A DNA stretch of 32,000 bases from an uncultured Alphaproteobacteria bacterium (GTDB lineage Bacteria > Pseudomonadota > Alphaproteobacteria > Rs-D84 > CACZYB01): contig CAKQHZ010000001.1 of assembly GCA_934246625.1 (NCBI GenBank), positions 150,001 to 182,000 on the forward strand, read 5' to 3'. A model generated the notes under the pieces. That model saw only the letters and a program-made list of their open reading frames with translations, did not search any database and was not told the DNA's origin. Positions 1 to 22,841 of the stretch are shown here, piece after piece. Positions within the stretch are counted from its first letter, which is position 1. Each line of letters begins with the position of its first letter. The position numbers were made by a program, and so were the translations under genes.

Positions 1-1319
1 GATAACAAATAATATGAAATAAGACATACAAACATAGATGAAATTATAATTGTTGGATTAAGCAATATTGTTGCAAGAATTTGATTTGTATCACTGAATA
101 AATTGACACCATTAAATATTGATGAAGCAGTTACAATTTTTCCGTCATTACCAAGCGAATCCAATAATGATTTTAAAGTTATATCAAATGGTCCAGCATT
201 AAAATTTGTAGTTAAAAGTTCGTTTAATAAATAAGTTGATATGGTCATAGCAACCGATAAAAATGCTATTCTGAAAGTGCATTGGACGACATTAAAGAAT
301 AATGGCTTTGATAATTGTCCTCGGGTATTTTTAAATGTCCACGCACCTATTGTGATTGGCATCATAACACCAACCATTGCAAGTTTAACAACTATATCTA
401 AAAGAATAAGTAAATATGTAAAGGCTATATATAAAAATGCAACTGCGATACAAAGTCCAATAAAAAATGTTAAAACATTCGCAAGAAATGTTATTACCAA
501 ATATATTTTTATAAAAAACATTATTATGGTATAAAGAATACCCCAGCCACCAAGTTTTGATAAAACCAAATTTTCAATCGTTTGCACGGCTGTTGTATTA
601 TATACAAAATCCAAAAGTTTAAATTCACCCATACCTATGCCTGCACGAGCCATTATTTTCAAACCTAATTGACTTCCTGCATTATACGTATTTTCATATT
701 CACGAGTAATGCACATAAGATTACGTAAAGTTTCTTCGTTTGCACTCATTTCATCAACAGATAAATTTGTTTTTTGATAATGGTTTAATACCTTTGTAGC
801 ATAACTTGATAATTTAACATCATCACAAGAAAAATTTTGAACCTTAAAGCCACCTAAAAAACTATCAGTAGAAACATTAAATAATTCGGTATCGGCCCTT
901 GCCTCTGTTAAAACCCATTTTGCAAAATTGGGTCCCATATTCATAATTGGGTCAATGGTATAGCTGAAAATTTCCTTTGCAGGAAGTGAAAGAAATGAAA
1001 GCACAAATGTATAAGCCAATAATTTTACAAAAACTTCTTTTAAAAAAGAAAATGTATTACCCTTTTGCTCCTTTATCGCATTAGTCCAAATATACCAAAT
1101 AAACCAAAATGCCATTGCGATAATAAGAATTTTTTGAAGTATTGGAACAAACTTATCATACAATTTATATACAAAATTAAAGACATATACATATATACCC
1201 TCAAGTATATTACAGCCCCAACAATTTTGTAGTTGTTGTGAAGAAGTATCACTTGCAAATAAAACATTGCTGGACAACAAAAACAATAATGAAAACCACA
1301 ATAATAATTTTTTCTTCAT
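1..1319 (-). CDS. virB6: VirB6/TrbL-like polytopic membrane protein, paralog E (5' part only; continues past the left edge of the window)
   Basis: Not in the ORF track because it is open-ended. I translated the minus strand by hand from ATG 1319..1317 and found no stop down to position 3 (439 codons): MKKKLLLWFSLLFLLSSNVLFASDTSSQQLQNCWGCNILEGIYVYVF...MPITIGAWTFKNTRGQLSKPLFF... It has a signal peptide, a CWGC-helix motif, several TM segments and the P-x4-[GA]-[YW]-x-F-x-x-T-R-like motif shared with the upstream paralogs. Its ATG lies 1 nt after the stop of the upstream gene (TAAAATG). Confidence 0.65.
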   Translation of the reverse strand, partial: MKKKLLLWFSLLFLLSSNVLFASDTSSQQLQNCWGCNILEGIYVYVFNFVYKLYDKFVPILQKILIIAMAFWFIWYIWTNAIKEQKGNTFSFLKEVFVKLLAYTFVLSFLSLPAKEIFSYTIDPIMNMGPNFAKWVLTEARADTELFNVSTDSFLGGFKVQNFSCDDVKLSSYATKVLNHYQKTNLSVDEMSANEETLRNLMCITREYENTYNAGSQLGLKIMARAGIGMGEFKLLDFVYNTTAVQTIENLVLSKLGGWGILYTIIMFFIKIYLVITFLANVLTFFIGLCIAVAFLYIAFTYLLILLDIVVKLAMVGVMMPITIGAWTFKNTRGQLSKPLFFNVVQCTFRIAFLSVAMTISTYLLNELLTTNFNAGPFDITLKSLLDSLGNDGKIVTASSIFNGVNLFSDTNQILATILLNPTIIISSMFVCLISYYLL

Positions 1320-1320
1320 T

Positions 1321-2829
1321 TTATGTATTATCCTTTATTTGTTCGTCCAAATCATTTGCATCTTCACGAAGAGCTTCGAATTTCTTTATTATATCAGATG
1401 TATCTTTTTTTAACAACTTTGTTGTTATTTCACGACCAAATGATTTTGCCCAAGTGCGAGTTGAATTAACAAGTTTTAAGAAGGTTCCGCCAACTTTAAA
1501 CATATAACCACTTACTATTCCTGAATAAGTATCAAGATTTCCCATAATCATCAATGAAAGTAAGCCAAGTGTGAATATAGGGAAAAAACTTCCTCCTGGG
1601 TTTTGAAGACTTGGCATTTCAAAAAGTATATCCTTTGATACTAAACAAGATTGTATTTTTGAAACATTCCCATTCGCAAGGTTAAAGCAATTTGCAAAGG
1701 CTTCGCTTTTCATTAAGGTATCTGTTTGACTTGCAACCAAATCATTATAAATAAAATCAGGAAACAAGTATGTGAAATTATCAAGTGGCCCTGGGTAATA
1801 CATATCACCAATAAAAATAAATGATGAATATATAATGCCTAAAAATATACAATACATAATGATTTTAAATGCCATACCAAACAAAGACTTAAATCCAGTT
1901 GATGAAAACTTTTTTGTTTCGTCATAGGCATAACCCGCCAACATCACAGGAACAAATGCAATTAAAATTCCGATTGTAAAAACTATATCAATCAAAGTAA
2001 AAGGAATGACTAAATACATTAAAAAGAATATTACAGTTATCGCCATACCGCCAATAATATCCAATAAAATCACAGGATTTTTATATTCAAGAAAACCCTT
2101 TAGTGAAAAATCAATCATATTCGCACCTGCGGTTGTCGCACTTAAATACACAACATTTACAGAATTTACCAAACAAAGCAAATCATTTTTTAATTCTTTG
2201 GAAAGGATACCATCAACTTCACTTTGTGGATAAGTTAAATGCTCACACACAGGAGATTTTACAATTTCCGTTCCAACACCAACCCCCATTTCCAACACGG
2301 GAATTGCCGTATTTTCAAAAATTAAATTTGCCATAGATTTCAATCTTGATGGTGTGGAATAACCGATTGCAACACCAATTATTGCAATTATGAAAAGTTT
2401 TTTTGCAAGTTCTTTTATTACATCATTAAAATTGATTTTTTGTTCGTCCTTTATATAACTATAAACTTTTGAAAGCAACCATATTGCAATTCCAAATAAA
2501 ACCAAGGTCCAAACTATATCAGAAATAAATGTAAAAACTTCTAAACCTACAACACTCATCAAATCAAATACTTTTGCGAAAATGCCACAGCTCCAACATC
2601 CATTAAAATTATCGGCAGGAAACATTCCATTTACTGGTTCAATTCCAGAAACGCTTTGATACCAATCAACAAAACTTGTGCCAACAGTAAAATCGCCCTT
2701 GATTGCAAAAATTGACATTGCAACAAAAATTCCCATTGAAAACAATCCTGACCATAAAAATATTTTTAATGGAGCAAGAAAAAATGCCTTCATCAAACGA
2801 TTTTTATTTTTAAATAAGTTATCAAGCAT
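1321..2829 (-). CDS. virB6: VirB6/TrbL-like polytopic membrane protein, paralog D
   Basis: ORF 1321..2874. I prefer the ATG at 2829 (MLDNLFKNK...) because GAGGA lies 5 nt upstream and it gives an 8-nt ATGCTTGA overlap with the upstream stop. N-terminal TM, CWSC motif (nt 2587-2598), at least 6 hydrophobic segments, VPVMLAGYAYDETKKF resembling Agrobacterium VirB6 GPLILVGYIFDRTRD (from memory), and a charged K/D/E tail. Confidence 0.7.
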   Translation of the reverse strand: MLDNLFKNKNRLMKAFFLAPLKIFLWSGLFSMGIFVAMSIFAIKGDFTVGTSFVDWYQSVSGIEPVNGMFPADNFNGCWSCGIFAKVFDLMSVVGLEVFTFISDIVWTLVLFGIAIWLLSKVYSYIKDEQKINFNDVIKELAKKLFIIAIIGVAIGYSTPSRLKSMANLIFENTAIPVLEMGVGVGTEIVKSPVCEHLTYPQSEVDGILSKELKNDLLCLVNSVNVVYLSATTAGANMIDFSLKGFLEYKNPVILLDIIGGMAITVIFFLMYLVIPFTLIDIVFTIGILIAFVPVMLAGYAYDETKKFSSTGFKSLFGMAFKIIMYCIFLGIIYSSFIFIGDMYYPGPLDNFTYLFPDFIYNDLVASQTDTLMKSEAFANCFNLANGNVSKIQSCLVSKDILFEMPSLQNPGGSFFPIFTLGLLSLMIMGNLDTYSGIVSGYMFKVGGTFLKLVNSTRTWAKSFGREITTKLLKKDTSDIIKKFEALREDANDLDEQIKDNT

Positions 2830-4816
2830 TTTTATCCTCTTTGTTATCTTCTTGTTTTTGTTTTTTTCGTTCATCTGCCATTTTTAGAATTTCTTTCTTT
2901 TCTTTGATTTTATCCTTCATATCCTTTGCAAGGACACTTGTATCAAATTTTAACTTAATTGCTTCACGACCAACTGTTGTTGTAAGTTTTACAATGTTTT
3001 GAGTCCATTTAAAGAATGTATTTGCAATCTTTTTTTCTGAAGAAATACCCTTAAATGAATTTGCGATTGATAAAGCCTTTCCCAATAAAAACCAAGATAT
3101 AAAACCTGTGTAAAAAACCTCAAGTAAAGAATTTGGTGAAAATGAAATCATATATAAAACTTCTGATGTGATTTCTTGGATATCAAGTTTTTCCAACGCA
3201 TCTTGGAAATTATAAAAATCCAAACCAGAAATATATAGCATTAACACAGATATAACTGAACACATCAATGTAAGTGATATTATTTGAAATATAGCAGATA
3301 AAAAAGTATCAAATGATTGCTTTACAAATTGTTTTTTATCAAGTGCATAGGCAACCAAAATAAGTGGGAATAAAAACACAACTATGGCAATCATAAAAAA
3401 TGCCTCAACAAAATAAAATGGCACCATTATATTTATGTAAAAGAATATCGCCATAATACAAAAACCGATAATAAGTTTGGTAAAGCCAGAACCATCAAAG
3501 TTTATAAGTTGTCGCCAACCAGTTTGTAAGTTATATTTTCCTATATCAAAATTCATATTATTAAATGCAGATATTCGTTCAATAGTGCAGACAATATTTT
3601 CTTTTATCTCCTTTGAAAAAATAACCTTATTATCACTTATATTTTTTGTTTTATATTTACAAGTAAATTGTTGATTATTGTTTTCTATACCACTTGTTAA
3701 TACACTGTTATACCCCACCATAAAATCAGTTAATGGTCGAATAGTATAATTTAAAATATTATGCTTATCAGTTATGGAAATTGTTAATGCTACACCAACA
3801 ATAAATACCCATACAGATTTTGTGAAAAATGTTTTTATAAATCCCATACCATCTTGTTTTTTAATGACATTATCAAAAAACGCAAACAGCATCCAAAATA
3901 AAAATAATCCAACCATCAAATCAATCGCATAACGTGAAAGATTATCATATAATACATAACCTATTCTTGAAACTGTATTAAATGTAATTTCAAATATATG
4001 ACAAGAGATACAGGATTTTGAAGTTTTGAAATCATACGGAAGACTTTTTAATTTGCAAGATGAACTGTTCCAACTTCCAACCTTTATATCCGTATCAAAA
4101 ATATAAATACCAGCAGTACCAATATTTAAAAATGGTATAGTTATACCTTTTGATTCCTTGTTTTTAACCTCGGCTACAACCTCGCCAAACATATTTATAA
4201 ATGTTGTGCCAAGAACTCCTATTGGTGCCAAGGCCTTTGGATAAGTTTGATTTACAAATTTTTCAAATGATATATTTGAAATTGTTGGAATACAATCGTT
4301 AAAAGCAAAAACCTTAAATATAGGAGAATAAGTTGTCTTTTTTGCAAAAATATTAAAATTCATAAGTCCACCAAGTTTACCCAATGGAATACCTATACGA
4401 TAAGGAAGCAAAGATTTAAGATGTTTTTCAGCACGATTTAAGGCCGTATCCAAAATTTTTTTATCACTTAAATTTTCCGGAATTGGTGTATCAATAAAAT
4501 AACGATAAAGATATTCTGCCTTTTCAGGGGTAATACCTGCTTGACGTAAAATATTTATATCCTTTACAAAAAGAGGTTGTGGGTAAAGTGCGAGATAAGA
4601 ATTCATATCAAAAGATAACCTTTTTTGATATTCCTTAAGATACTTAATTTCCCAACAATAAAACTCTTTGTTTGAAACATTTATTTCATCATTTAACAAA
4701 CCATAATACTTTGGATTTTGACAAAGATGTGGTGTTGATTGTGCAAAAGAAATATTTGGCATATTAAACATTATACCAAAGACAAAGCTATAAATTAAAA
4801 ATATTTTTTTAAGCAT
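2822..4816 (-). CDS. virB6: VirB6/TrbL-like polytopic membrane protein, paralog C, with an extra N-terminal secreted domain
   Basis: 664-aa ORF. Signal peptide ...NISFAQS, then a ~240-aa soluble Cys-containing domain homologous to that of paralog B, CISC motif (nt 4001-4012), multiple TM segments, FPLILVAYALDKKQF (close to VirB6 PLILVGY), and a K/E-rich tail. The start overlaps the upstream stop by 8 nt (ATGCTTAA). Confidence 0.7.
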   Translation of the reverse strand: MLKKIFLIYSFVFGIMFNMPNISFAQSTPHLCQNPKYYGLLNDEINVSNKEFYCWEIKYLKEYQKRLSFDMNSYLALYPQPLFVKDINILRQAGITPEKAEYLYRYFIDTPIPENLSDKKILDTALNRAEKHLKSLLPYRIGIPLGKLGGLMNFNIFAKKTTYSPIFKVFAFNDCIPTISNISFEKFVNQTYPKALAPIGVLGTTFINMFGEVVAEVKNKESKGITIPFLNIGTAGIYIFDTDIKVGSWNSSSCKLKSLPYDFKTSKSCISCHIFEITFNTVSRIGYVLYDNLSRYAIDLMVGLFLFWMLFAFFDNVIKKQDGMGFIKTFFTKSVWVFIVGVALTISITDKHNILNYTIRPLTDFMVGYNSVLTSGIENNNQQFTCKYKTKNISDNKVIFSKEIKENIVCTIERISAFNNMNFDIGKYNLQTGWRQLINFDGSGFTKLIIGFCIMAIFFYINIMVPFYFVEAFFMIAIVVFLFPLILVAYALDKKQFVKQSFDTFLSAIFQIISLTLMCSVISVLMLYISGLDFYNFQDALEKLDIQEITSEVLYMISFSPNSLLEVFYTGFISWFLLGKALSIANSFKGISSEKKIANTFFKWTQNIVKLTTTVGREAIKLKFDTSVLAKDMKDKIKEKKEILKMADERKKQKQEDNKEDKNA

Positions 4817-6902
4817 CTGTTATTTTATTTTCCTCTTTTACATCAACGATGGTTTCGTCATTTTCTTTTGTATTCTGTTTTATTTTATCATCTTTTTTCT
4901 TAATTGCATCTTGTTTTACAAATTCTGGATTTTCACGAGAAACTTTTAAACCTAAAATAGATTTGAAAGTTTTTCTTAGGTTTTCACCTAATGAAAGTTG
5001 ACCTGCTGAACCGCCATAACTTTGTGCGAACTCTGACAATCTAGAATATACATAATACATTGCATAAATAATAAAAATAAATTGTGAAACGCTTATTATA
5101 TCTGTTGGAATTGAATCCAAAATTATATTTGGATTATTTGTTTCAATGGCATTATCAATGATTGAAAGTATATCCTTGTTCGCATTTTTAAAATAAAAAC
5201 CATAAATAAGTGTGCGATTAAATAATGAAAATATTGCAAGAGTTATCATAGTAAATCCAAAATTTTTTGCCGTATTTATTATTGAGGTTATATTAAAACC
5301 TATCCAATTAAAGGCATAACCAAACACCATAAATGGCCAAAGAATTGCAATTTTTAAAATATCAAGAAGTCCATCTAAAATATAAAATGAAATCATAAAG
5401 TTCATTATGAAAAATAATCCCCAAATTAATAATCCGATAAAGAAACTTAATACCTTTGTATCAGAAGAAAAATTAAATAAGTTTTTCATTAAAACTTTAC
5501 CCATAGTCATTTGTTTTGCATTCGTTTGTAATGTATCGGTCAAAAAGCAAACTATATTCCCCATAGTATCCTTTGATAAAACATAACTATCAGTTAAAAT
5601 TTTATTTGATTGTATTTGTTTATTTTTAACAACAGGTGGAATAATTTGGTCGTCTGTTTTTACAACCTTTCTTTGATTTATTTCATCAATTACAGTATCT
5701 GGATTACATGTTGATGGAATATTTTGTGTTGATAAAACTTTGCTGGAGACACCCAAAGTTAAATCAATAATTGGTTGAAATGTAAATGAAAATAATACAT
5801 TCACAGGAGTAAGAAGCACAACTGAGACAATAAATATTAACCTTAGTTTTTCAGCAATCTTGCTATAATAATCACTTAAATCAACTGAAAATGGAGCATT
5901 CTTAAAACCACTTAAAAATGTTGTTGCAAAATAAAAACAACCAAATAAAACCAAAAATGAAATTATATATTTGCTAAATGTTTTATACATAAAATCGAAC
6001 AAGAAAGATATTTCATTAAATATCATCACAATATAAGGACACATAAAACATACTGAACTTTTTGCAACTTCTGCTTTTAAGTTATCAGCCTTACACTTGT
6101 TTTCATTCCAATTTACATTAACAGAAACATTTTGTGAAAAAACTTTGTTATTAAAAGTAATTCGTTTAACACTTGATTTGCCAAGTCCCTGTGAAAGAAC
6201 ATTTCCACCAACAGATGTGTTATATTCGATTGTGGCAACCGTTTCATCAAAAATATTTACAAAGTTTGTGCCCTTTATTGCAACTGGACGAAGTGCCAAT
6301 GGAATTGCTGAAATTACATCAAAATATGTCAAAGTTGATGCAGGAGTATAAAGTGCATTATCAGAAGAATAATTGATACGTTTATCAGTAATGCAATTTC
6401 GCCCTTTTTTATTAACTATACTTCCAATAAATTCGTCCGAATTATCAAAGTCCGTTGTGTTTGTAGTAAAATTTTTTGATGGAGTTATTGTAAAGTCCGC
6501 ACCTATTTGTTCGCTTACAATAGATGTTTTTATAAAATCGTTTAAAAGTTCTTGTGTTGAAAGATATGTTTCATTTTCATCATCAGAATTTATAAAATAA
6601 TCTTGAATAATATTTGGGGTAATGCCAAGACTTCTTAAATAATTAAAATTGTTTTTATAATTTCCATACATATTTTTATATTGTGCAACCGAAATCGCAC
6701 CTATACCATTTCGTTCAAGGTATAAAATATCACTGCAAAAGAAATCCTTTGAATATTTTTCAAGTATTGGCGTTGGATTTGCAAAATAAATTGATGCTTC
6801 CTTATAACTGCATTTTTCATTTGAAGATTGTGCCATAACATCAAAAGCGTTTGAAAAAATTAAGGCAAAAAGCAATGAAATGATTTTAAGATTTAGTTTC
6901 AT
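4809..6902 (-). CDS. virB6: VirB6/TrbL-like polytopic membrane protein, paralog B, with an extra N-terminal secreted domain
   Basis: ORF 4809..6929. I prefer the ATG at 6902 (MKLNLKIISLLFALIFSNAFDVMAQS, a typical signal peptide) because GTGAGG lies 6 nt upstream. The N-terminal domain aligns with paralog C (LRSLGITPNIIQDYF vs LRQAGITPEKAEYLY; PVAIKGTNFVNIFDETVATIE vs PIGVLGTTFINMFGEVVAEVK). CFMC motif (nt 6039-6050), many TM segments, WPFMVFGYAFNW, charged tail. Confidence 0.65.
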   Translation of the reverse strand: MKLNLKIISLLFALIFSNAFDVMAQSSNEKCSYKEASIYFANPTPILEKYSKDFFCSDILYLERNGIGAISVAQYKNMYGNYKNNFNYLRSLGITPNIIQDYFINSDDENETYLSTQELLNDFIKTSIVSEQIGADFTITPSKNFTTNTTDFDNSDEFIGSIVNKKGRNCITDKRINYSSDNALYTPASTLTYFDVISAIPLALRPVAIKGTNFVNIFDETVATIEYNTSVGGNVLSQGLGKSSVKRITFNNKVFSQNVSVNVNWNENKCKADNLKAEVAKSSVCFMCPYIVMIFNEISFLFDFMYKTFSKYIISFLVLFGCFYFATTFLSGFKNAPFSVDLSDYYSKIAEKLRLIFIVSVVLLTPVNVLFSFTFQPIIDLTLGVSSKVLSTQNIPSTCNPDTVIDEINQRKVVKTDDQIIPPVVKNKQIQSNKILTDSYVLSKDTMGNIVCFLTDTLQTNAKQMTMGKVLMKNLFNFSSDTKVLSFFIGLLIWGLFFIMNFMISFYILDGLLDILKIAILWPFMVFGYAFNWIGFNITSIINTAKNFGFTMITLAIFSLFNRTLIYGFYFKNANKDILSIIDNAIETNNPNIILDSIPTDIISVSQFIFIIYAMYYVYSRLSEFAQSYGGSAGQLSLGENLRKTFKSILGLKVSRENPEFVKQDAIKKKDDKIKQNTKENDETIVDVKEENKITDA

Positions 6903-8544
6903 TTGATGCCTCACTTTTATCTTTGGCATTGGATTGAATTTTATCCTTTATCAATCCAGTTGCAGATGATGTATTCTTTGCAAAGCCCACAACATTTCGT
7001 GTTGTAGATTTGGTCCAGTTCACAAAACTTTTTGATGTATTCCAAATGCTTCGTCCAAGATTTGACTCAGATATATTGCCACCAAACCAACCAGCAAACT
7101 TGTTTGTTTCAGTAATAATTTTAAAATTTAAAACCAAAGCAAAAATTATATAAAGGAAATACCAAAAACCAACAAGATTGTTAAACTCCTTGATATTACC
7201 CTCTTGAAGAAGTTTCAAAGCATATTTTGCAGATGACATACGGCTCATTCCATCAAAGGAAAACATTCCACCTAAAACCCAATCATTTAATTCATTGCAA
7301 ATTATTATCGCAACACACATAAAAACTAATCCCTTTGCAAAGCCAAATAATTTTGATAATCCCGCCGTTGCATAAGAACGTGTTTGTTCAAACACATAAC
7401 AAACGGCAAGAAATGGGAAAATTAAAAGAGCGACACCCATAAACAAAACATTTTCGATTATGATAAATGCAAAAAGCATATTTACCAAAAACAATCCTAT
7501 TACAATAGCAATACCACATAATCCCATACGAATATTATCATTCGTAATAAACGCAACTATTGATGTAATATTTGCAAAACGTGAAGCATTATTAGAAATT
7601 ACTTTACCGGTTTTTTGTGTTCGTTTTATATTTTTACCACCATTACCAGAAACGTCCTGTAAAACTTCGTCCAACTTGTCCTTTAATTTTTTAAGGCTTT
7701 CTTCGGTTTTTTTAGTATCCTTTCCACCATCTTTTTGTTTTTGAATTTTAACTTCGACTTTGCCAATCTTTTTTTGCATATTTTTAAGCCACTTTTCACT
7801 TCCAAAATGTTGTAAAGCTCTTCCACCAAAAAAGCCCGCCAAACGAATAGAAACATTTACAACTCCTGCAATTATAATTTGTGGCATACCATATTCAAAA
7901 AGTTCAATTCCTATATTCATATAGGTTTGACGAAGAAGGTCAACTTCCTTAAAAAGGCATACCATATTTTCCTTTGTATTTTCGGATAGTGCCATACCTT
8001 CTTTATAAATAAGTTTTGTATTATCCTTATCACATTCGGGTGGAACGGTTAATTGAAGATTATCAATCTTTTTTCGCAAAACACCTCTTCCAATACCACT
8101 TCCAAAATCAAGAACAAGTTCATAAGTATTTGAAAAAATATTTCGTGGAGAATTTAAAAGCAATGCCCCTATTACAAATGTTGCAAGAAAAAGTTTGCGA
8201 TAGATTTTTTTTAAATACCCACTGTCTATATCAATTTTTGGATTTATACTTACACCCTTTATAAAAATTTTATATGTTTCAAATACAATCCATAATGCAA
8301 GACATACCGATAAAATTTTCAAAGAATCATTTTGGAAAAGGTAAAATGTTTGATATGAAACCTTTGAAAAAGTATCGTAAATATTTTCAAAAACTCCACA
8401 TACCCAACAATCGGTTAAAAGTATGTAAACTCCTGTTGAAATATTATATGTTGCATAAGCAATCAAAAGAACAGCAATAACAAAAAGCACCCAGCCTTTG
8501 ATATCTGAGAATATAGAACCTGCTTTTGATAAAACGCTATTCAA
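6886..8544 (-). CDS. virB6: VirB6/TrbL-like polytopic membrane protein, paralog A (first of the array)
   Basis: 552-aa ORF. The start codon is TTG (plus strand caa at 8542-8544), 6 nt after the stop of the 87-aa ORF, with AAGGAAG upstream. N-terminal TM, CWVC motif (nt 8398-8409), an internal K/E-rich loop, TM bundle, and FPFLAVCYVFEQTRSYATAGLSKLF, which is very similar to Agrobacterium VirB6 GPLILVGYIFDRTRDIAAKWIGQLI (from memory). Confidence 0.7.
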   Translation of the reverse strand: MNSVLSKAGSIFSDIKGWVLFVIAVLLIAYATYNISTGVYILLTDCWVCGVFENIYDTFSKVSYQTFYLFQNDSLKILSVCLALWIVFETYKIFIKGVSINPKIDIDSGYLKKIYRKLFLATFVIGALLLNSPRNIFSNTYELVLDFGSGIGRGVLRKKIDNLQLTVPPECDKDNTKLIYKEGMALSENTKENMVCLFKEVDLLRQTYMNIGIELFEYGMPQIIIAGVVNVSIRLAGFFGGRALQHFGSEKWLKNMQKKIGKVEVKIQKQKDGGKDTKKTEESLKKLKDKLDEVLQDVSGNGGKNIKRTQKTGKVISNNASRFANITSIVAFITNDNIRMGLCGIAIVIGLFLVNMLFAFIIIENVLFMGVALLIFPFLAVCYVFEQTRSYATAGLSKLFGFAKGLVFMCVAIIICNELNDWVLGGMFSFDGMSRMSSAKYALKLLQEGNIKEFNNLVGFWYFLYIIFALVLNFKIITETNKFAGWFGGNISESNLGRSIWNTSKSFVNWTKSTTRNVVGFAKNTSSATGLIKDKIQSNAKDKSEASNETKS

Positions 8545-8550
8545 TCTTAT

Positions 8551-8814
8551 TTACTTCCTTTTTTCAAAGAATTTATTTTTTAACTTTATCAAAGTAGTAA
8601 AAAACTTTGACCTTAAAAACCTTGTCAACCAATCACTTACAACTTGGTTTAGCTTTCGGTTTTCAGGATGTGCCTTTGCATAAAGGATACACAAACACAC
8701 AAATATAATTCCCCAAGAAAGTATCAATATAAAAAACTTTAGCTTTGATATAATATAAAGTCCCAATAAAATTGATAAAACGGTTAAAAGTAATTTCATA
8801 TTGCCTGAAAACAT
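8551..8814 (-). CDS. small two-TM membrane protein, first gene of the VirB6-like operon (function unknown)
   Basis: 87-aa ORF with two hydrophobic helices (LLLTVLSILLGLYIISKL, FFILILSWGIIFVCLCILYA) and a basic C-terminal tail. A strong SD (GAGGGAGGA) lies ~8 nt upstream of the ATG at 8814. Its stop is 6 nt before the start of paralog A. Confidence 0.6.
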   Translation of the reverse strand: MFSGNMKLLLTVLSILLGLYIISKLKFFILILSWGIIFVCLCILYAKAHPENRKLNQVVSDWLTRFLRSKFFTTLIKLKNKFFEKRK

Positions 8815-8888
8815 TTCTTGCGTCCTCCCTCTTTTTATTATATAATATATAATAATTAAAAAATAATCAAATAAAATAAAGGGTTTTT
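8815..8888. promoter_or_regulatory. 74-bp divergent promoter region between the VirB6-like operon (-) and the orphan operon (+)
   Basis: Plus strand: TTGCGT (8818-8823), 17 nt spacer, TATAAT (8841-8846). Minus strand: TTGATT, 17 nt, TATTAT, overlapping the same AT-rich core. A 7-1-7 palindrome TTATATA-A-TATATAA sits at 8838-8852. Promoter hexamers occur easily by chance in DNA this AT-rich. Confidence 0.4.
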
Positions 8889-10367
8889 ATGGAAAATTAT
8901 AATTCATTTTTACCAGACGAGATGTTAAACAAACTTAACAGAAGTTTGGATACATTTTATTTGAAAATTAGGGAAATTATAGAAAACAAATCTTTGGCTT
9001 CTCAACAAAAGGAAGCTGAGATAAAAAAACTTTATGATAGCTCATTTGAAAATATTGACGGAATTGAAAAATCAGATGATTATATTAAGGATTTATTACA
9101 AAATATAAATGATTATTCCAATGGTAAAATTGACGATAAAGAATTGTTCTTTAATTTGGAAAAACATAAGGAAGATACAAGGTCTGCTATCTTAATAAAT
9201 TATGAAAATACTTTCCTTGCAACACAAAGAAAGGAAGAAACAGAAAAGACAAAACAAACCTTAAAAGAATTGTTTCCAAATAGTAATGTTGACAATTTGA
9301 ATCAGGCTCAATTAACAGAAATTACAAATGATTTGGAAAATCCTTATACTGCTACATTATCAGAAAAAACACTGGAAGACTTAAATCTTCCTCGAAAAGA
9401 TGCTGAAAAAATAAAGGTGCAATATAAATATAAAGTCGAAGGCAAAATAACATCTGGAATTGGTGATTTAGATACATTTTTGGGTATTATACAGCCTGGA
9501 CTTAATTTAATACTTAAAACTGGTGCAAAACTTGTTTATGAAGGTATTATTGACCCAGCAGAAAAGGTATTCTTTGGAAACGAAGAACTTGGAATAAAAA
9601 GTTTTTATCAATCATGGGCTGAACAAACTGGAAATTTAAAAAAGGATTATGATTTCCTTCATAAATTCGGTGATATGCCAGCAGATGATACCTTTAAATA
9701 TGCTCAAAGTGTGAAAAAAACTGAAAACCACGTTGCAACATATTGGCAAAATAAAATCATTGAACAAATAAATAAAAATCGTGAAACAACTTATAAAAAT
9801 AATATTTCTCAATATAATCAAAACTACAATCGTATTGTTTCAAATTTGCTAAATGATGAAAATACTTCTCAAGCATTAAAGGACAGCATAAAAAATACTG
9901 ATGATATAACAAAGTTAAAGGTATTTCCTTTGCTTGACTCTATATCAAAAGAGGATAAAGATTTGTTGATGAATAAACCTGAAGAAGTTCAAAAATTTAC
10001 TGGAAATCCATTTGATAAAACAAAGGATATAACCGAAACTCAACAGGCTTTGCAAGAAATTATAAAGCAAGTTATTTCAGAAACTCGTGAAAAAGATAGT
10101 GAAGGAAAACCCGTTGCAAAGGCAACTGATGCTGGAAAATCTGCACTTAATAGTATTATGCACTTAACTGATTTATTTAATAAAGAAGATAGTCCTGAAT
10201 TCAAAGGTAAGTTTTCTGATTTAATAGAGTATTATAAAAATGGATACCTTAAAAATTATGGAAAACTTATTGAAAACAGTGATTACTTTGAATATCAATC
10301 CAGTGAAGAAGCAAAAAATGCTGAATTTATGGATCAATTAAAGGCAATGGTAGGAAACAGTAAATAA
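8889..10367 (+). CDS. hypothetical soluble acidic/Lys-rich protein (orphan; candidate secreted effector)
   Basis: 492-aa ORF with no signal peptide or TM and a composition rich in E/K/D/N/Q. It has one central hydrophobic patch (FLGIIQPGLNLILKTGAKLVYEGII). I recognise no family. First gene of a tightly packed operon. Confidence 0.7.
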   Translation: MENYNSFLPDEMLNKLNRSLDTFYLKIREIIENKSLASQQKEAEIKKLYDSSFENIDGIEKSDDYIKDLLQNINDYSNGKIDDKELFFNLEKHKEDTRSAILINYENTFLATQRKEETEKTKQTLKELFPNSNVDNLNQAQLTEITNDLENPYTATLSEKTLEDLNLPRKDAEKIKVQYKYKVEGKITSGIGDLDTFLGIIQPGLNLILKTGAKLVYEGIIDPAEKVFFGNEELGIKSFYQSWAEQTGNLKKDYDFLHKFGDMPADDTFKYAQSVKKTENHVATYWQNKIIEQINKNRETTYKNNISQYNQNYNRIVSNLLNDENTSQALKDSIKNTDDITKLKVFPLLDSISKEDKDLLMNKPEEVQKFTGNPFDKTKDITETQQALQEIIKQVISETREKDSEGKPVAKATDAGKSALNSIMHLTDLFNKEDSPEFKGKFSDLIEYYKNGYLKNYGKLIENSDYFEYQSSEEAKNAEFMDQLKAMVGNSK

Positions 10368-10368
10368 T

Positions 10369-11457
10369 ATGAAAAAAAAGCTATCATACATATTTCTTAT
10401 TACCTTGATTTTGGTTTTGCCTATTATTTATTGGCTTAATTTTAAATGGGGTATTAAATTTTCTGCTATTGATATAAAAAAATTAAGATTTGCATTTATG
10501 CGTGATAAGTTTTTGCTTTTTGCAACTTTGTGTAATTCTGGGCTTTATGTTTTTGTTGTATATAAAATTATAAACTCTAATGTTATTGAAAATAATGGAA
10601 ACAACAATACAAAAATTCCTGAAAAACAAATAAATACTGTGCCAAATGGTATAATGTTATCTGCCTCTACTGGAAGTGGTCAAATAAACCCAAATGATAA
10701 AAAATGGCAAGATATGTATAAGGGAAATGGTGAAGATGAAGAAGTTGTTGTAAAGGAAGCTCCTCAAACTCCTATCACTAAAGAAAATATTTCAAAGCCA
10801 GAAGATAATAAAATTAGCACGGAAGAAATTCCTCAACCACAACAACCTGTTCTTGAAGAAAATCAAGATAATATTATCAATATTCCACCACTTGAATCCG
10901 AAGATGTTATCAATGTTCAAGTGGAAAGAGCTCTTGCCGAAATTGGATATGAAAATATGGGTGATATTTACATCAATGGTGTGTATGTTGACTTTGTATC
11001 TATCGCAGAAAGTGATACTTTAGTAATTGGAAAAATCAATGCAAAGGGTGGAAATATTATTGCAAATGAAACGCCAACAACTCCAAATACTCCACCATCT
11101 TGGTTCACAAATGAAGAAAAGTATCCATCACCTGTATGGGAAATAAAAAATGCCTCTAATGAATTTGTTAAAATGATTAACGAAGTTTTACCAGAAGACA
11201 ATGGTATAATTGTTAAATCTGTTGTTGTAATACCATCTGCAACTGTTGTTAATCAAGACGACATTGAACCAAAGTGGAAAGAATTAGATGTCGATGTTGT
11301 AAAATTGTCTGGAAAATCAAATCTTCCAAATATAGTTTCCGTGCTTCCTGATAGAAAGGATACCGAAGTTTTGGAAAGTTATAAAAAATTTGTTCAAACC
11401 TTGATGAAATATTTTTCACAAAAATATAAACGTCCAAATATAAAAAAGGCAGGATAG
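10369..11457 (+). CDS. membrane-anchored protein with a C-terminal NERD-like / PD-(D/E)xK-like domain
   Basis: 362-aa ORF starting 1 nt after the upstream stop. Two N-terminal TM helices, a P/E/Q-rich linker (EEIPQPQQPVLEENQDN), then VERALAEIGYENMGDIYINGVYVDFVSIAESDTLVIGKINAKGGNIIANE...SWFTNEEKYPSPVWEIKN, which follows the NERD pattern (D-hh..., hhhExK, G-x-I, W, sP). The ExK glutamate appears to be replaced (VIGK). Confidence 0.6.
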   Translation: MKKKLSYIFLITLILVLPIIYWLNFKWGIKFSAIDIKKLRFAFMRDKFLLFATLCNSGLYVFVVYKIINSNVIENNGNNNTKIPEKQINTVPNGIMLSASTGSGQINPNDKKWQDMYKGNGEDEEVVVKEAPQTPITKENISKPEDNKISTEEIPQPQQPVLEENQDNIINIPPLESEDVINVQVERALAEIGYENMGDIYINGVYVDFVSIAESDTLVIGKINAKGGNIIANETPTTPNTPPSWFTNEEKYPSPVWEIKNASNEFVKMINEVLPEDNGIIVKSVVVIPSATVVNQDDIEPKWKELDVDVVKLSGKSNLPNIVSVLPDRKDTEVLESYKKFVQTLMKYFSQKYKRPNIKKAG

Positions 11458-11460
11458 CCA

Positions 11461-12024
11461 ATGTTATTTACTGAAAATTATTATCGCGATTTGATTGCAA
11501 AGCTGGGAATTCCAGAAATGCCAATAAAAAAAGTTTTGTTCAAAAAAGATTATCTTTCAAATTGTCCTAAACTTTATAATGACTTTTTCAAAATATCAAA
11601 AAAACTTATGCAATTTGTTTATTACAATAATATTGAGGATTTGATTGGTGCAAATTTTTCACACGAAAGTATTATGAAAATGCGTGATGGAATACTTCCT
11701 GAAAATATTGATATATATTTAAAGGTTCCATTTGAATATGGTGGGACAATCGAATTTTCAAATATGTTTTTGATAAAAAAAAGACCATTCAAGGATTTGA
11801 TTGATAGTTTTATTGATGAGCAAGTCTTAACCTTTAATCGTTCCAATGGAAATTTTAATCGTGAAAGTGGTTATCAATATCCAACTGAACTTTATATCCC
11901 AAATCCAAAGGGTATTATATTTTTGCCTGCATTAAAGGGATTTGCTGGAGCTGGCGGTAATACATCTGCAGATATTATGACCGAAATAGGAAGCACTATG
12001 TTTTCAAAATCAGGAGGCTTTTAA
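11461..12024 (+). CDS. hypothetical protein in the toxin position upstream of a SUKH-like gene
   Basis: 187-aa ORF with no signal peptide or TM. The segment DIYLKVPFEYGGTIEFSNMFLIKKRPFKDLI loosely recalls an HNH/beta-beta-alpha-Me core (P-x3-GG-x5-N) but lacks the histidines. Gly-rich C-terminus. Its stop overlaps the next start (TAATG). Confidence 0.6.
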   Translation: MLFTENYYRDLIAKLGIPEMPIKKVLFKKDYLSNCPKLYNDFFKISKKLMQFVYYNNIEDLIGANFSHESIMKMRDGILPENIDIYLKVPFEYGGTIEFSNMFLIKKRPFKDLIDSFIDEQVLTFNRSNGNFNRESGYQYPTELYIPNPKGIIFLPALKGFAGAGGNTSADIMTEIGSTMFSKSGGF

Positions 12025-12470
12025 TGAACGACATTTTTAAAAAATTAAAGCTCTGTATAAATAATATAATATATTTGCCACCTGCAAAAGATGCTCAAAT
12101 TGATTTTGTAAGTGCAATGCTTAAAAATGATGGATTTGCTCCTGTGCCACAAGATTATATAGACTTTTTAAAATTAACAAATGGAATTTGTTCTGGGATT
12201 TTAGAATTTTTTGGAACCGAAAAAATTAAACGTGCAGACTATAACTATAATTTTCCAAATTTAATAGATGCAAATGAAATTTTTAAAAAATCAGAAAATC
12301 CTCTTATGAAAAATTCTGTGCTATTAGGATATAATCTTTTAAATGCAATTATTTATGATAATGATGAAAAACTTTATAAAATTGTAAATAGAAATTTTTT
12401 CACTCCTGTAAAATCTTTTATTACTTTCAAAGATGTTTTAAATGAAATAATTAAAAATCTAAGGGACTAA
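12024..12470 (+). CDS. SMI1/KNR4 (SUKH-1)-like immunity-type protein
   Basis: 148-aa ORF with an AGGAGG SD 7 nt upstream. The N-terminal pattern AKDAQIDFVSAMLKNDGFAPVPQDYIDFLKLTNG matches the SUKH signature (a..eI...E..lg..lP.dY..FL...NG). A later segment (VLLGYNLLNAIIYDNDEKLYKIV) fits the second conserved block. Confidence 0.55.
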   Translation: MNDIFKKLKLCINNIIYLPPAKDAQIDFVSAMLKNDGFAPVPQDYIDFLKLTNGICSGILEFFGTEKIKRADYNYNFPNLIDANEIFKKSENPLMKNSVLLGYNLLNAIIYDNDEKLYKIVNRNFFTPVKSFITFKDVLNEIIKNLRD

Positions 12471-12471
12471 A

Positions 12472-12678
12472 ATGCTTGAAAAACATTCAATTACATTGAT
12501 GGGTCATCAAACAAGTATTTCTATGGAACCAGAATTTTGGATTGAACTTAAAGCTATTGCAAACAAACAAAATAAATCCATCAATGAAATTATTTCGTCT
12601 ATTGATATAAGTCAACATAATGGCAATTTATCAAGTTGCATTCGTGTGTTTATTCTTAAAAACCTTAAAAATAATTAG
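12472..12678 (+). CDS. ribbon-helix-helix domain protein (RHH_4 / PF13467-like, conserved in Alphaproteobacteria)
   Basis: 68-aa ORF. The sequence HSITLMGHQTSISMEPEFWIELKAIANKQNKSINEIISSIDISQHNGNLSSCIRVFIL matches the family pattern H.TS..LE.eFW..L..IA......L..L...ID......NLSSa.RvF.L. Confidence 0.7.
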   Translation: MLEKHSITLMGHQTSISMEPEFWIELKAIANKQNKSINEIISSIDISQHNGNLSSCIRVFILKNLKNN

Positions 12679-17963: not shown

Positions 17964-18479
17964 ATGAGAAAATTTTTATATATACTTGGTTCTATTGCAT
18001 TTGTTTTGCTTGTTCTTGTTTTAGTAAAATATTTGACTGTATCAAAAATCGACACTTCAAAACTCGAATATGTTCAAACTGACACTTCTGTAAATTTAAG
18101 ACGTGTAAAACAAAATGGAAAGTGGGCTTTGGTTGATTTATCAAACAGACCTATAACCGATTTTGAATATGATTCAATAAGTCCATTTATTGAAAAAAAA
18201 TCTGTAATTGTTAAAAATGGCAAGTATGGTTTTATTGATGACAAGGTTAATGTTGTGGCTCCTGCTAAATATGATTTAGCTTTTGACTTTTTAGATGGTG
18301 TTGCAAAAGTTTCTGTTAATGGTAAATGGGGTTTAATTGATGAAAATGGTAATGAACTTATTAAACCTGACTATTATGATTATATTTCTTCTTTTGATTA
18401 CAAAGGTATCGCAAGAGCAGAAAATTATAAGGATAATGTAGTTGTTTTCATTGATAAAACTGGTAAAAAAATAAAATAA
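17964..18479 (+). CDS. WG (KWG) repeat-containing protein, membrane-anchored or secreted
   Basis: 171 aa with an AAAGGAGG SD. N-terminal TM/signal sequence, then repeated G-K-W/Y-G-[LF]-[IV]-D units (NGKWALVDLSNRPIT, NGKYGFIDDKVNVV, NGKWGLIDENGNELIKPDY). Confidence 0.75.
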   Translation: MRKFLYILGSIAFVLLVLVLVKYLTVSKIDTSKLEYVQTDTSVNLRRVKQNGKWALVDLSNRPITDFEYDSISPFIEKKSVIVKNGKYGFIDDKVNVVAPAKYDLAFDFLDGVAKVSVNGKWGLIDENGNELIKPDYYDYISSFDYKGIARAENYKDNVVVFIDKTGKKIK

Positions 18480-20569: not shown

Positions 20570-20598
20570 TTGACAAAAATATTTTTATGTTATATATT
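20570..20598 (+). promoter_or_regulatory. putative sigma70-type promoter of the OM beta-barrel gene
   Basis: TTGACA (20570-20575), 17 nt spacer, TATATT (20593-20598). The ORF-track ATG at 20587 falls inside this element, which favours the ATG at 20629. Confidence 0.4.
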
Positions 20599-20628
20599 TT
20601 AAACAAAATAAAAAATAAGGATAAAAAT

Positions 20629-21561
20629 ATGAATAAATCTTTTGTTGCATTGGCAGTTATTTCTTTGACAAGTCTTATTAACCCAGCTTGTGCAAAAATC
20701 CCTTCTAATCTTAAAAAAGAAGATATTGAAAATATTTATATTAAAACCTATGATAATAAAGATTACAAATTCGATGATAACGACGAAGAAATCAATGAAA
20801 CTCCATCTCTTCAAAAAGATATTAAAAAAGATACTCTTCCACGATTAAAAAGAATTTATATTGCTGGATATGGTGGTTATTTTTATACAAAAGAAAATAA
20901 TTTTGAATTTGCTCCAAGTGATAATTGCAAGGTTTCTTATAACTTTATTTGTAATAATGATAAATCAATTAACCCAATTAAAACAGAAGCAAAAGATGAA
21001 TATTTTTTAACAGGAGCTTTTGGTATTAACTCGGAAAATCCTCTTCGTTTAGAATTAAGTTATTATAAAATGGGTAAGGCTCTTGAACTTGATGGCAATA
21101 ATCAAGTCAACCTTAACACTATCAATTATAAAAGCAAACTTGATTTAGATGGTGGTTCTGCAAATATATATTTCGACTTTGTCCTTAACAGAAGAAAGCC
21201 AAGTTTTATCTTTACTCCTTATGCAATGGCTGGTATAGGTATTTCAAATATAAACTTGTCTGATATAACATTTAAGGGACAAAATAATCACGACATTACT
21301 ATAAAGGGTAAAGAACAAAGAAATAAAACTGTTATATACGGGGCTGGTTTAACTGCAGGTATCAATAACTATATTTCTTTGGATATTGGATACAGATATT
21401 ATGATTTTGGAACTATCAAAACCTCAAACAAAATGATTGATAGCGTTGTTGATAATTCCGACCCATTAAATCCGATTACAACAAACACAGAATACGATTT
21501 GGAACTTCAAAGTGATTTTGATGCACATATTGCAGTTATTGGTTTGAAGATTCAAATATAA
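20629..21561 (+). CDS. outer-membrane beta-barrel protein (OMP_b-brl / surface-antigen-like)
   Basis: Start at MNKSFVALAVISLTSLINPACA (signal peptide), with AAGGA upstream. The C-terminal ~230 aa show alternating hydrophobic beta-strand patterns with aromatic girdle residues (YIAGYGGYFY, LTGAFGIN, LRLELSYY, IYGAGLTAGIN, LDIGYRYYDFG, AVIGLKIQI). Confidence 0.6.
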   Translation: MNKSFVALAVISLTSLINPACAKIPSNLKKEDIENIYIKTYDNKDYKFDDNDEEINETPSLQKDIKKDTLPRLKRIYIAGYGGYFYTKENNFEFAPSDNCKVSYNFICNNDKSINPIKTEAKDEYFLTGAFGINSENPLRLELSYYKMGKALELDGNNQVNLNTINYKSKLDLDGGSANIYFDFVLNRRKPSFIFTPYAMAGIGISNINLSDITFKGQNNHDITIKGKEQRNKTVIYGAGLTAGINNYISLDIGYRYYDFGTIKTSNKMIDSVVDNSDPLNPITTNTEYDLELQSDFDAHIAVIGLKIQI

Positions 21562-21610: not shown

Positions 21611-21640
21611 AAAAAAGTCCCCCGAAATGGGGGATTTTTT
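21611..21640. terminator. bidirectional rho-independent terminator between the convergent OMP and ddl genes
   Basis: A6-G-T-CCCCC-gaaat-GGGGG-A-T6. The GC stem is flanked by an A-tract and a T-tract, so it reads as a terminator on both strands. A second hairpin, AACTCTCTT(24 nt)AAGAGAGTT, lies at 21568-21609. Confidence 0.75.
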
Positions 21641-22841
21641 ATTTACGTTTGAAAATCACAGATGATGATAATTTCAAATCAATTTCCTTTTCCTTTGAGT
21701 GATATTTTTCAAATCCATTTTGGATTATTATATTGGTCAAGTCCGTATAATTTATAGCATATTTCGAATTTTGCCACAAATAGAATGCAAATGAACCTGG
21801 AATTGGATTTACTTCATTTAACCAAATTTCACCAGTTTTTTCATTTGAAAGAAAATCAATTCGTGGATTTCCAGTTGCACCCATTGCAGAAAATAAAGTT
21901 TTCGCACTATCACAAATAAACTTTGTTTGCTTTTCTGTTAAATTAGGAGCAAACTTTCTTCGTGATTCAATAAGTTCTTCTGATGGCATAGCAGAAAGAT
22001 TTGTGCCCTTTTTCTTTGCCCCATTTTCGGACAAATATTTATCAGAAAATGATAAAAATGTATTTTCGTTATTTGGCTTTTCAATTACAGATGTAATTAT
22101 TTCACCATCAAGATTTTTCATTACCGCGACATTATATTCGACAAGGTTTTCAACAAATGGTTCAAGGATTGCTTCGGTATCCATTTTGAATATATCAAGC
22201 AAAGCTGAAGATAATTCCTCTTTGTTATTAACTTTGAATACACCTATTGAACTTCCTAAATTTGCAGGTTTTGCACAAATAGGATAATCAACATTTATAT
22301 TCTTAATTACCTTTTGAATATCAATAAAGTTTTCACCAGTTGGCTTTTGCACAACAACTTCGGATAAAACATTTATACCAAGAGTTTTGCAAATACGCTT
22401 TGTTGCAACTTTGCTCATATAAACACTTGATGAAAGAATATCTGCACCAGTGTAAGGAAGATTTGCAGTTTCAAATAAACCTTGCATACCACCACTTTCA
22501 CCAACATCACCATGAAAAGCAAAAAATGCAATATCAAATTTAATTCTTCGCTTTCCAAATAATGATGGATTCATAACTTTTAATGATGGAGTAATTGTTG
22601 CTTCACCAACGTGCAATGATACATTTAAAAGTTTTGCCTTTGTTGCATCGGTAAGTGGATAAACTTTTGTATCAAGTAGCAAATCCCCAGTCCACCATGT
22701 GCCATCACTTGCAACATAAACTGGAAATGACTCATATTTTGTGCTATCCATTGCTTGGATAACTTGAAGACCTGTTAAAATACTAACGTCGTGTTCAAAG
22801 GATTTTCCACCAAAGAAAACTGCTACTTTTATTTTATCCAT
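21639..22841 (-). CDS. ddl: D-alanine--D-alanine ligase family protein (long form)
   Basis: 400 aa. KIKVAVFFGGKSFEHDVSILTG, FHGDVGESGGMQGLFE, ATP-grasp motifs, and C-terminal PRIDFL...WLNEVNPIPG (R/D/E/N catalytic set). It starts 9 nt after the alaS stop, suggesting an alaS-ddl operon. Confidence 0.85.
   Translation of the reverse strand: MDKIKVAVFFGGKSFEHDVSILTGLQVIQAMDSTKYESFPVYVASDGTWWTGDLLLDTKVYPLTDATKAKLLNVSLHVGEATITPSLKVMNPSLFGKRRIKFDIAFFAFHGDVGESGGMQGLFETANLPYTGADILSSSVYMSKVATKRICKTLGINVLSEVVVQKPTGENFIDIQKVIKNINVDYPICAKPANLGSSIGVFKVNNKEELSSALLDIFKMDTEAILEPFVENLVEYNVAVMKNLDGEIITSVIEKPNNENTFLSFSDKYLSENGAKKKGTNLSAMPSEELIESRRKFAPNLTEKQTKFICDSAKTLFSAMGATGNPRIDFLSNEKTGEIWLNEVNPIPGSFAFYLWQNSKYAINYTDLTNIIIQNGFEKYHSKEKEIDLKLSSSVIFKRK

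Follow-up and report, generated by a model that had tools for sequence, protein, structure and literature searches.

The 32,000-nt stretch analysed here (the window; positions 150,001 to 182,000 of contig CAKQHZ010000001.1, from an uncultured alphaproteobacterium) is chromosomal, has a GC (guanine plus cytosine) content of ~30%, and codes for UvrB, AlaRS, Ddl, RF2, CtpA, and AsmA as identified with Pfam. A tightly packed six-gene operon was found on the minus strand at positions 3-8814, in which a small open reading frame (ORF) of 87 amino acids (aa) is followed by five paralogs, A to E (the array), assigned below to the VirB6/TrbL family of type IV secretion system (T4SS) membrane proteins. 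The small ORF (8551-8814) is the first gene of the operon and encodes a hairpin of two transmembrane (TM) segments with a basic C-terminal tail. Paralog A (6886-8544) encodes 552 aa from a TTG start and comprises a TM anchor, a CWVC sequence, and a VirB6 core that carries the motif PFLAVCYVFEQTRSYA and is interrupted by a Lys-rich insertion of ~90 aa. Paralog B (4809-6902; 697 aa according to the gene call of the public contig, 706 aa if counted from the first ATG) and paralog C (2822-4816; 664 aa) each consist of a signal peptide, an N-terminal domain, a CxxC (CFMC and CISC, respectively), and a VirB6 core with the motifs PFMVFGYAF and PLILVAYAL. Paralog D (1321-2829; 502 aa, or 517 aa counted from the first ATG) is the most compact copy, with a TM anchor, CWSC, and PVMLAGYAY. 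Paralog E (3-1319) is cut by the window edge, so that the window holds its N-terminal 439 aa, with a signal peptide, CWGC, and a VirB6-like core containing PITIGAWTF.

Genes A and B overlap by 17 nt, B and C by 8 nt, and C and D by 8 nt; D and E are separated by 1 nt and the small ORF and A by 6 nt. Because the gene ends overlap or lie 1-6 nt apart, the array looks like one operon. The small ORF is preceded by a strong Shine-Dalgarno sequence, GAGGGAGG, located in a divergent intergenic region of 74 bp (8815-8888) that also contains a promoter-like site on the minus strand (8870-8842), the match of which is not above the background of AT-rich DNA. An exact match to protein C located this locus on contigs of 127-540 kb from human-gut metagenomes. 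In one of these, an identical public contig (L001), E has a full length of 826 aa and ends in a Lys/Glu/Asn-rich C-terminal tail of ~340 aa that extends beyond the window start; 3' of E, these contigs continue with VanH-like, VanX-like, VgrG3-C-like, and LicD genes. The array proteins are annotated as "hypothetical" in public records, which submitters have labelled "Alphaproteobacteria bacterium" or "Rickettsiales bacterium".

An ortholog group was built for each gene from 11 related species and the groups were compared profile to profile using hhalign. All five array proteins were mutually homologous (probabilities 96-99.9%, E-values 2e-9 to 7e-35) over a common core of ~350-400 columns that starts at the CxxC helix, of which each protein has one. 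Pairwise identity between the copies is 15-22%; for comparison, the VirB6 copies of Rickettsia differ by ~80% in amino acids. Four Cys, two Gly, and the motif Pro, which is the first residue of the motif quoted in the original prediction for this DNA, vary little or not at all among the five families, as compared in eight species. The N-termini of B, C, and E resemble signal peptides, A and D begin with a TM anchor, and the C-terminal tails are Lys-, Glu-, and Asp-rich. The strongest pairing, between B and C (E 7e-35), spans 572 columns and includes an N-terminal domain common to these two, which is of ~230-260 aa, alpha/beta, led by the signal peptide, and predicted to be periplasmic; the domain of C gave no match in PDB or Pfam. 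In E orthologs of GC-rich relatives, a Peptidase_M23 domain is inserted in the loop after the motif. The original prediction had presented the five consecutive genes as mutual paralogs, each with a signal peptide or TM anchor, a CxxC helix, and a charged tail, and all of this was seen, with the quoted motifs of A to E at the places given.

Assignment to VirB6/TrbL, also proposed in the original prediction, was examined using Pfam, profile alignment, and structure prediction. The TrbL family (PF04610) was matched by A at 26.2-26.9 bits, against a gathering cutoff of 25.9, and by D at 20.2 bits, which is below the threshold. TrbL was the only Pfam family to recur, with 15 of 39 orthologous cores at E ≤ 0.01 (best 6e-9), and more distant family members scored 30-33 bits (up to 32.7). 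Related versions of the motif P-x4-G-Y-x-F, at the cytoplasmic end of the central TM helix, are present in all five paralogs, and hhalign placed the invariant Pro and the G-Y-x-F of the family on the segment GPLILTGYIFDRTRDIA of Agrobacterium VirB6. This segment is contained in the genuine VirB6 of A. fabrum C58, as read from pTiC58, and the version given in the original prediction was nearly exact. Agrobacterium VirB6 was matched by the A profile at E 7.3e-5 and by the D profile at E 2.3e-4. An AlphaFold2 (AF2) model of A, from an 18-sequence alignment (pLDDT 71), had TrwI/VirB6 as its sole high-probability Foldseek matches (probability 0.91-0.92, TM-score 0.45-0.49). For C, a 134-sequence alignment was drawn from the 1471 family representatives collected in an exhaustive HMMER search, and the resulting model (pLDDT 86.5, pTM 0.79) was compared with PDB, where the top eight matches were all R388 TrwI/VirB6 chains and nothing else exceeded a probability of 0.5. 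The best match, 8rt9_F (E 5.3e-4, probability 1.00, TM-score of 0.58 on the target), covered the whole chain over 332 columns; the five TrwI chains 7o3v_F-J were also among the matches, and the structural alignment of C with TrwI had 12% identity. A sequence search of PDB with the A-ortholog profile returned coiled-coil noise only and no VirB6, and a five-paralog profile run against a set of 5.8 billion proteins returned A orthologs only and no named VirB6, a weak negative since the search is word-indexed. The assignment of a VirB6 fold to the array proteins, as judged from profiles and predicted structures, is solid because TrbL recurs, the models of C and A match VirB6 folds, and the motif aligns with Agrobacterium VirB6.

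The operon is one half of an 11-gene block, the other half being a divergent five-gene operon on the plus strand. Its first gene, u492 (8889-10367; 492 aa), encodes a soluble, fast-evolving protein whose orthologs are 24-43% identical and always lie beside the array. Next, u362 (10369-11457) has two N-terminal TM segments, a Pro/Glu-rich linker, and a C-terminal globular domain; neither u492 nor u362 had a match in Pfam or PDB. The most conserved protein of the block is u187 (11461-12024), with 31 invariant positions in 9 orthologs, including P.EYGG and GGNT..D.M..G..M; no relative was found in Pfam or PDB and no toxin domain was recognisable. The start of u148 (12024-12470) overlaps the stop of u187. 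By profile matches, u148 is a member of the SUKH superfamily (SMI1/KNR4): the window protein scored 21.3 bits, under the cutoff of 25.4, and among the 11 orthologs SMI1_KNR4 was matched by four (best E 9.3e-7), SUKH_6 by four, and SUKH_5 by two. SUKH is a typical immunity-protein family, and a putative immunity function is assigned to u148, with u187 as its partner and a candidate effector or toxin. The last gene, u68 (12472-12678), has a ribbon-helix-helix domain (RHH_4, PF13467, precomputed in public contigs), is retained in all loci, and likely encodes a regulator. Profiles of the five proteins gave no match to Agrobacterium VirB1-11.

More than 20 loci from uncultured, mostly gut Alphaproteobacteria with GC contents of 26-57% have this block, its genes being 1:1 orthologs in an unchanged order. 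Gene order was identical in 11 GTDB species, all mammalian gut metagenome-assembled genomes (MAGs), and reads UvrB, AsmA, the divergent operon (u68, u148, u187, u362, u492), the array operon (small ORF, A, B, C, D, E), VanH-like, and VanX-like; every paralog has its own ortholog in each of these species. Compared with locus L007, identity was 82% for u187, 75% for u68, 72% for the small ORF, 69% for D, 66% for B, 65% for C, 63% for A, 61% for u148, 52% for E and u362, and 42% for u492. The block with the A-E order was also found in distant lineages of 49-57% GC with other flanks (L019, L022/L033, and L034). Flanks thus vary between UvrB/AsmA and MnmE/phosphorylase/DnaA, yet the block is intact in every A-E-type locus. 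Because it occurs in distant lineages with other flanks, the expansion to five copies and their coupling to the divergent operon are old and under selection, and by their sequences the five predicted VirB6-fold paralogs are ancient and non-redundant. An origin as a mobile element was considered and rejected: the locus does not differ from its flanks in GC content, genes for an integrase, a relaxase, or a tRNA were not found, and its neighbours on the chromosome are fixed. Among uncultured MAG lineages of a large clade this layout is standard; no characterised organism with it, and no paper describing it or the secretion genes of these lineages, was found in the literature.

The 87-aa leading protein is kept in every locus with the consensus MFSGN.KLL...SW..I..C..ILY.K. 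It was considered as VirB3 and as VirB2: hhalign gave a probability of 1.7% for VirB3 and PF05101 was not matched, and profile searches did not support VirB2. A weak resemblance to DUF4131, the ComEC N-terminal domain, was found in four of 12 orthologs (E 0.013). As the original prediction had stated, no virB3 or virB4 lies upstream of the array. The ORF in that place is a genuine and conserved gene with no detectable similarity to VirB3. The four-copy array of a sister lineage is also headed by a small ORF (L021:1762-1977, plus strand), which is unrelated in sequence to the 87-aa ORF of the window and weakly matches the TrbC/VirB2 pilin (E 0.011), so the leading gene of that array may encode a pilin.

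T4SS partners were sought locally, using Pfam and phmmer with Agrobacterium and sister-lineage queries. As had been predicted, the rest of the window contained no VirB/Trb protein or secretion ATPase (Pfam; phmmer with Agrobacterium VirB1-11), and the 10 kb added on each side of the window contained housekeeping genes only; the array can therefore be called orphan locally, over 54 kb of contiguous sequence. Alignments of A orthologs run against GTDB species genomes and JGI metagenomes recovered more arrays, none of which adjoined T4SS genes. When the VirB11 of the sister lineage was used as a query for that of the window's lineage, all of the 120 matches listed were >93% identical to the query, a weak negative since distant matches were hidden.

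This sister lineage is a very prevalent human-gut alphaproteobacterium (44-49% GC) with more distant members of the family, arranged as a small ORF followed by four VirB6-like genes (loci L024, L026, and L027). About 7 kb from the sister array, in convergent orientation, are genes for VirB8 (PF04335), VirB9 (CagX), a YD-repeat protein, VirB10 (TrbI), and VirB11, the last matched by TIGR02788 at 6e-41 and by Agrobacterium VirB11 at 5.8e-21 in phmmer. The family is thereby physically tied to T4SS core genes. Several of the sister VirB6-like genes carry periplasmic Peptidase_M23 and VgrG3-C-like peptidoglycan-hydrolase domains. Within the cluster at L026:272-9986 (plus strand), VirB9 has 563 aa, the YD-repeat (Rhs-like) protein encoded between virB9 and virB10 has 1138 aa, and VirB10 is a giant of 1544 aa with Bflower-type repeats. 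Peptidase_M23 domains were located in VirB6-family genes at L019:10001-12697, L022:10001-12961, L021:8479-12474, and L026:20534-20969; in relatives they are either N-terminal or inserted into the loop that follows the motif helix, and some of the proteins also have a VgrG3-C-like domain, which is fused to the VirB6-like proteins P0107 and P0141 as well. Genes beside the sister array coding for proteins of ~800, 250, 425, and 280 aa were tried as divergent VirB4 and other components and rejected, as they had no Pfam match and no Walker A motif.

Of the two explanations offered in the original prediction, a split T4SS and the use of VirB6-like proteins in a new context, the former is favoured over the latter by the position of the sister array near virB8-11. 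We consider it somewhat better than an even chance that the array is the VirB6 module of a split, rvh-like (P-type) T4SS in an uncultured gut alphaproteobacterium, and such a system would probably serve interbacterial antagonism. The predicted topology is VirB6-like, with a periplasmic N-terminus, a polytopic core, and a charged cytoplasmic tail: the signal peptides of B, C, and E are consistent with an N-terminus in the periplasm, the hydrolase domains that relatives carry at the N-terminus or in the post-motif loop fit periplasmic exposure of those parts, and the charged tails agree with a C-terminus in the cytoplasm, where Agrobacterium VirB6 has its own. The base of the T4SS stalk in the membrane is a pentamer of VirB6, which is thought to act as a platform or valve for pilin and substrate (PMC12624023). 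From the pentamer, the 1:1 orthologs, and the fixed order A-B-C-D-E, we infer that A to E may assemble into one heteropentameric inner-membrane platform and valve. Multicopy RvhB6 and the lack of VirB5 are hallmarks of rvh (PMC11077975), and the N-terminal domains of B and C may replace the missing VirB5. Genes for the ATPases VirB4, VirB11, and VirD4 and for the VirB8-10 envelope complex would lie at other chromosomal sites, as in the "archipelago" of Rickettsia, whose T4SS genes are spread over five islets, one of which has five VirB6 copies (PMC2653234). The divergent operon would supply regulation and a cognate effector/immunity pair, and the hydrolase fusions could act in VirB1-like opening of the cell wall or as antibacterial cargo. 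The hydrolase fusions, the u187/SUKH pair, and the YD-repeat gene point to contact-dependent interbacterial antagonism, and a congener-killing or antagonistic role was proposed for the rvh system of free-living basal Rickettsiales (PMC11077975).

Several results weigh against this interpretation. VirB4, VirB8-11, and VirD4 were found neither in the contiguous 54 kb nor at distances of up to 10 kb from the array in any of the more than 20 A-E-type loci. B, C, and E of the window had no Pfam match. A Trp downstream of the motif is reported to be invariant and essential in VirB6 (PMC2653234), and the Agrobacterium Trp (AAKW) faces Gly/Leu in A, with no conserved Trp at that position, in a single alignment that is of low confidence past the motif. 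The sister paralogs are not 1:1 orthologs of A to E and the accessory genes differ, so the association with a T4SS is extended to the window's lineage by analogy. Assembly into a heteropentamer, substitution for VirB5, and a role of candidate u187 as an effector are all putative.

An alternative is that the 11 genes form a self-contained VirB6-based apparatus, with no need of VirB4, VirB11, VirD4, or an outer-membrane core complex, for the export or insertion of a toxin or for remodelling of the envelope. The block is undivided in every A-E-type locus despite differing flanks and a wide range of GC contents, and no T4SS core gene was found near any of these loci, both of which such an apparatus would explain. 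The block has no ATPase or other energy source, however, and the related sister array adjoins virB8-11; scattered T4SS genes are normal in Rickettsiales, and to our knowledge VirB6 occurs solely as part of a T4SS, so that an autonomous apparatus was considered unlikely. The more specific form, in which a heteropentameric VirB6 ring acts with the hairpin protein and u362 to export or insert u187 or u492, or to remodel the envelope, was given still less credence; if true, VirB6 would have a role independent of type IV secretion, in gut Alphaproteobacteria of a clade that is widespread. The array could also belong to a T4SS of the DNA-uptake or conjugation type (ComB-like, or rvh-like DNA import/export) instead of one that delivers protein toxins, given that VirB6 has been likened to ComEC-type channels and the RvhB6 copies have been proposed as DNA import channels (PMC2653234), and that the small ORF weakly resembles DUF4131. 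This was judged improbable, since no relaxase, coupling protein, integrase, or competence gene was found in any locus, the locus lies on the chromosome, is inherited vertically, and has a native composition, and the SUKH protein, the peptidoglycan-hydrolase fusions, and the YD-repeat protein fit protein toxins better.

The two remaining explanations deny the array either a function or its family. Absence of partner genes nearby is what a decaying, functionless remnant of a lost T4SS or of an integrated conjugative element would leave, but the six ORFs are intact, closely spaced, and overlapping or abutting at their ends, orthologs of every paralog are kept in more than 20 loci at 31-69% identity, the four invariant Cys and the motif Pro are retained, the family has 1471 representatives, and the GC content is that of the flanks; decay is thus very improbable. 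Equally hard to credit is an unrelated family of helical transporters that matches TrbL by chance. It would account for the lack of Pfam matches in B, C, and E, the match of A only at the threshold, and the PDB sequence search from which VirB6 was absent, but in the fold search with C only VirB6 chains reached a probability of 1.00 (others ≤ 0.5), TrbL is the sole recurrent Pfam family and is matched more strongly by distant members, the motif aligns with Agrobacterium VirB6, and sister-lineage members are linked to virB8-11.

The original prediction named enlarged tandem virB6 copies as a hallmark of the rvh system, which is supported by the literature (PMC2653234 and PMC11077975). Islet A of rvh (virB3-virB4a-virB6a-e in Rickettsia; virB3-virB4 and four virB6 genes in Anaplasmataceae) shares with the window four to five tandem, enlarged, divergent VirB6/TrbL paralogs, each kept across species, with hydrophilic extensions flanking the TrbL core, in AT-rich alphaproteobacterial hosts. 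The T4SS genes of Rickettsiales are scattered over the chromosome, as those of the array clade would be if the system is split. Unlike in rvh, the array is preceded not by virB3-virB4 but by an unrelated 87-aa hairpin protein and is paired with a conserved divergent operon of five genes, one of them for a SUKH-family protein; its proteins are of 502-826 aa compared with 674-1154 aa for RvhB6, and the hosts are uncultured and mostly gut-associated, some with 50-57% GC. With A. tumefaciens VirB6 and R388 TrwI (PDB 7O3V and 8RT9), A to E have in common the predicted fold, the motif P-x4-G-Y-x-F-[DE]-x-T-[RK] at the end of a TM helix, and a predicted polytopic inner-membrane topology with the N-terminus periplasmic and the C-terminus cytoplasmic; there are as many paralogs here as subunits in the known pentamer. 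They differ from these proteins in being two to three times larger, in the conserved CxxC and two further Cys, in the signal peptides and extra periplasmic domains of B and C, in being encoded by five genes and not one, and in lying outside any virB operon, and sequence similarity is marginal. The Xanthomonadales T4SS (X-T4SS) and the congener-killing rvh of basal Rickettsiales resemble the locus in having a candidate effector/immunity pair (here u187 and u148) beside machine genes and, in relatives, peptidoglycan-hydrolase domains associated with the system. In contrast to the X-T4SS, no XVIPCD-type signal or VirD4 was identified at the array, and u187 is unusually conserved for a polymorphic toxin and has no recognisable toxin domain.

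Other features were recorded in and beside the window. Just past the window start (L001:16013-17826) are genes for a VanH-like D-2-hydroxyacid dehydrogenase and a VanX-like D-Ala-D-Ala dipeptidase with a signal-peptide-like N-terminus, and this pair of genes flanks the array throughout the AT-rich clade. A Ddl-type ligase of 400 aa is encoded 13 kb away, at window positions 21639-22841, and with the VanH-like and VanX-like proteins could form a vanHAX-like cell-wall precursor set. Also near the array (L001:17819-19390, minus strand) is the gene for a 523-aa secreted protein with a T6SS_VgrG3-like C-terminal (peptidoglycan-hydrolase) domain. On the plus strand of the window are genes for a WG-repeat protein that is conserved beside uvrB in all relatives (17964-18479), an outer-membrane beta-barrel protein weakly similar to the Rickettsia adhesin Adr (20587-21561; NF052636, E 2.6e-5), and a 452-aa protein with no family match (25654-27012). 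In prfB (RF2), positions 27021-27090 on the plus strand contain a classical programmed +1 frameshift site (AGGGGG, a spacer, and CTT TGA C), so the apparent 334-aa TTG-start ORF at 27114-28118 is the downstream frame of a longer RF2 that starts at the ATG at 27021.

What is new at this locus is a Rickettsiales-style multicopy VirB6 detached from virB3-virB4, headed by a new hairpin protein, and locked to a SUKH operon. Multicopy VirB6, which has been treated as a signature of Rickettsiales rvh with a puzzling purpose, thus appears in uncultured, largely gut Alphaproteobacteria, the hosts including species that are common in human metagenomes, and ~1,500 clusters of "hypothetical" proteins become members of the VirB6 family. 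The number of paralogs equals the five-fold symmetry of the R388 VirB6 stalk base, and a heteropentamer would explain the four or five VirB6 genes of Rickettsiales-type systems. The conserved companions and the hydrolase fusions suggest an interbacterial weapon in a poorly known part of the gut microbiota.

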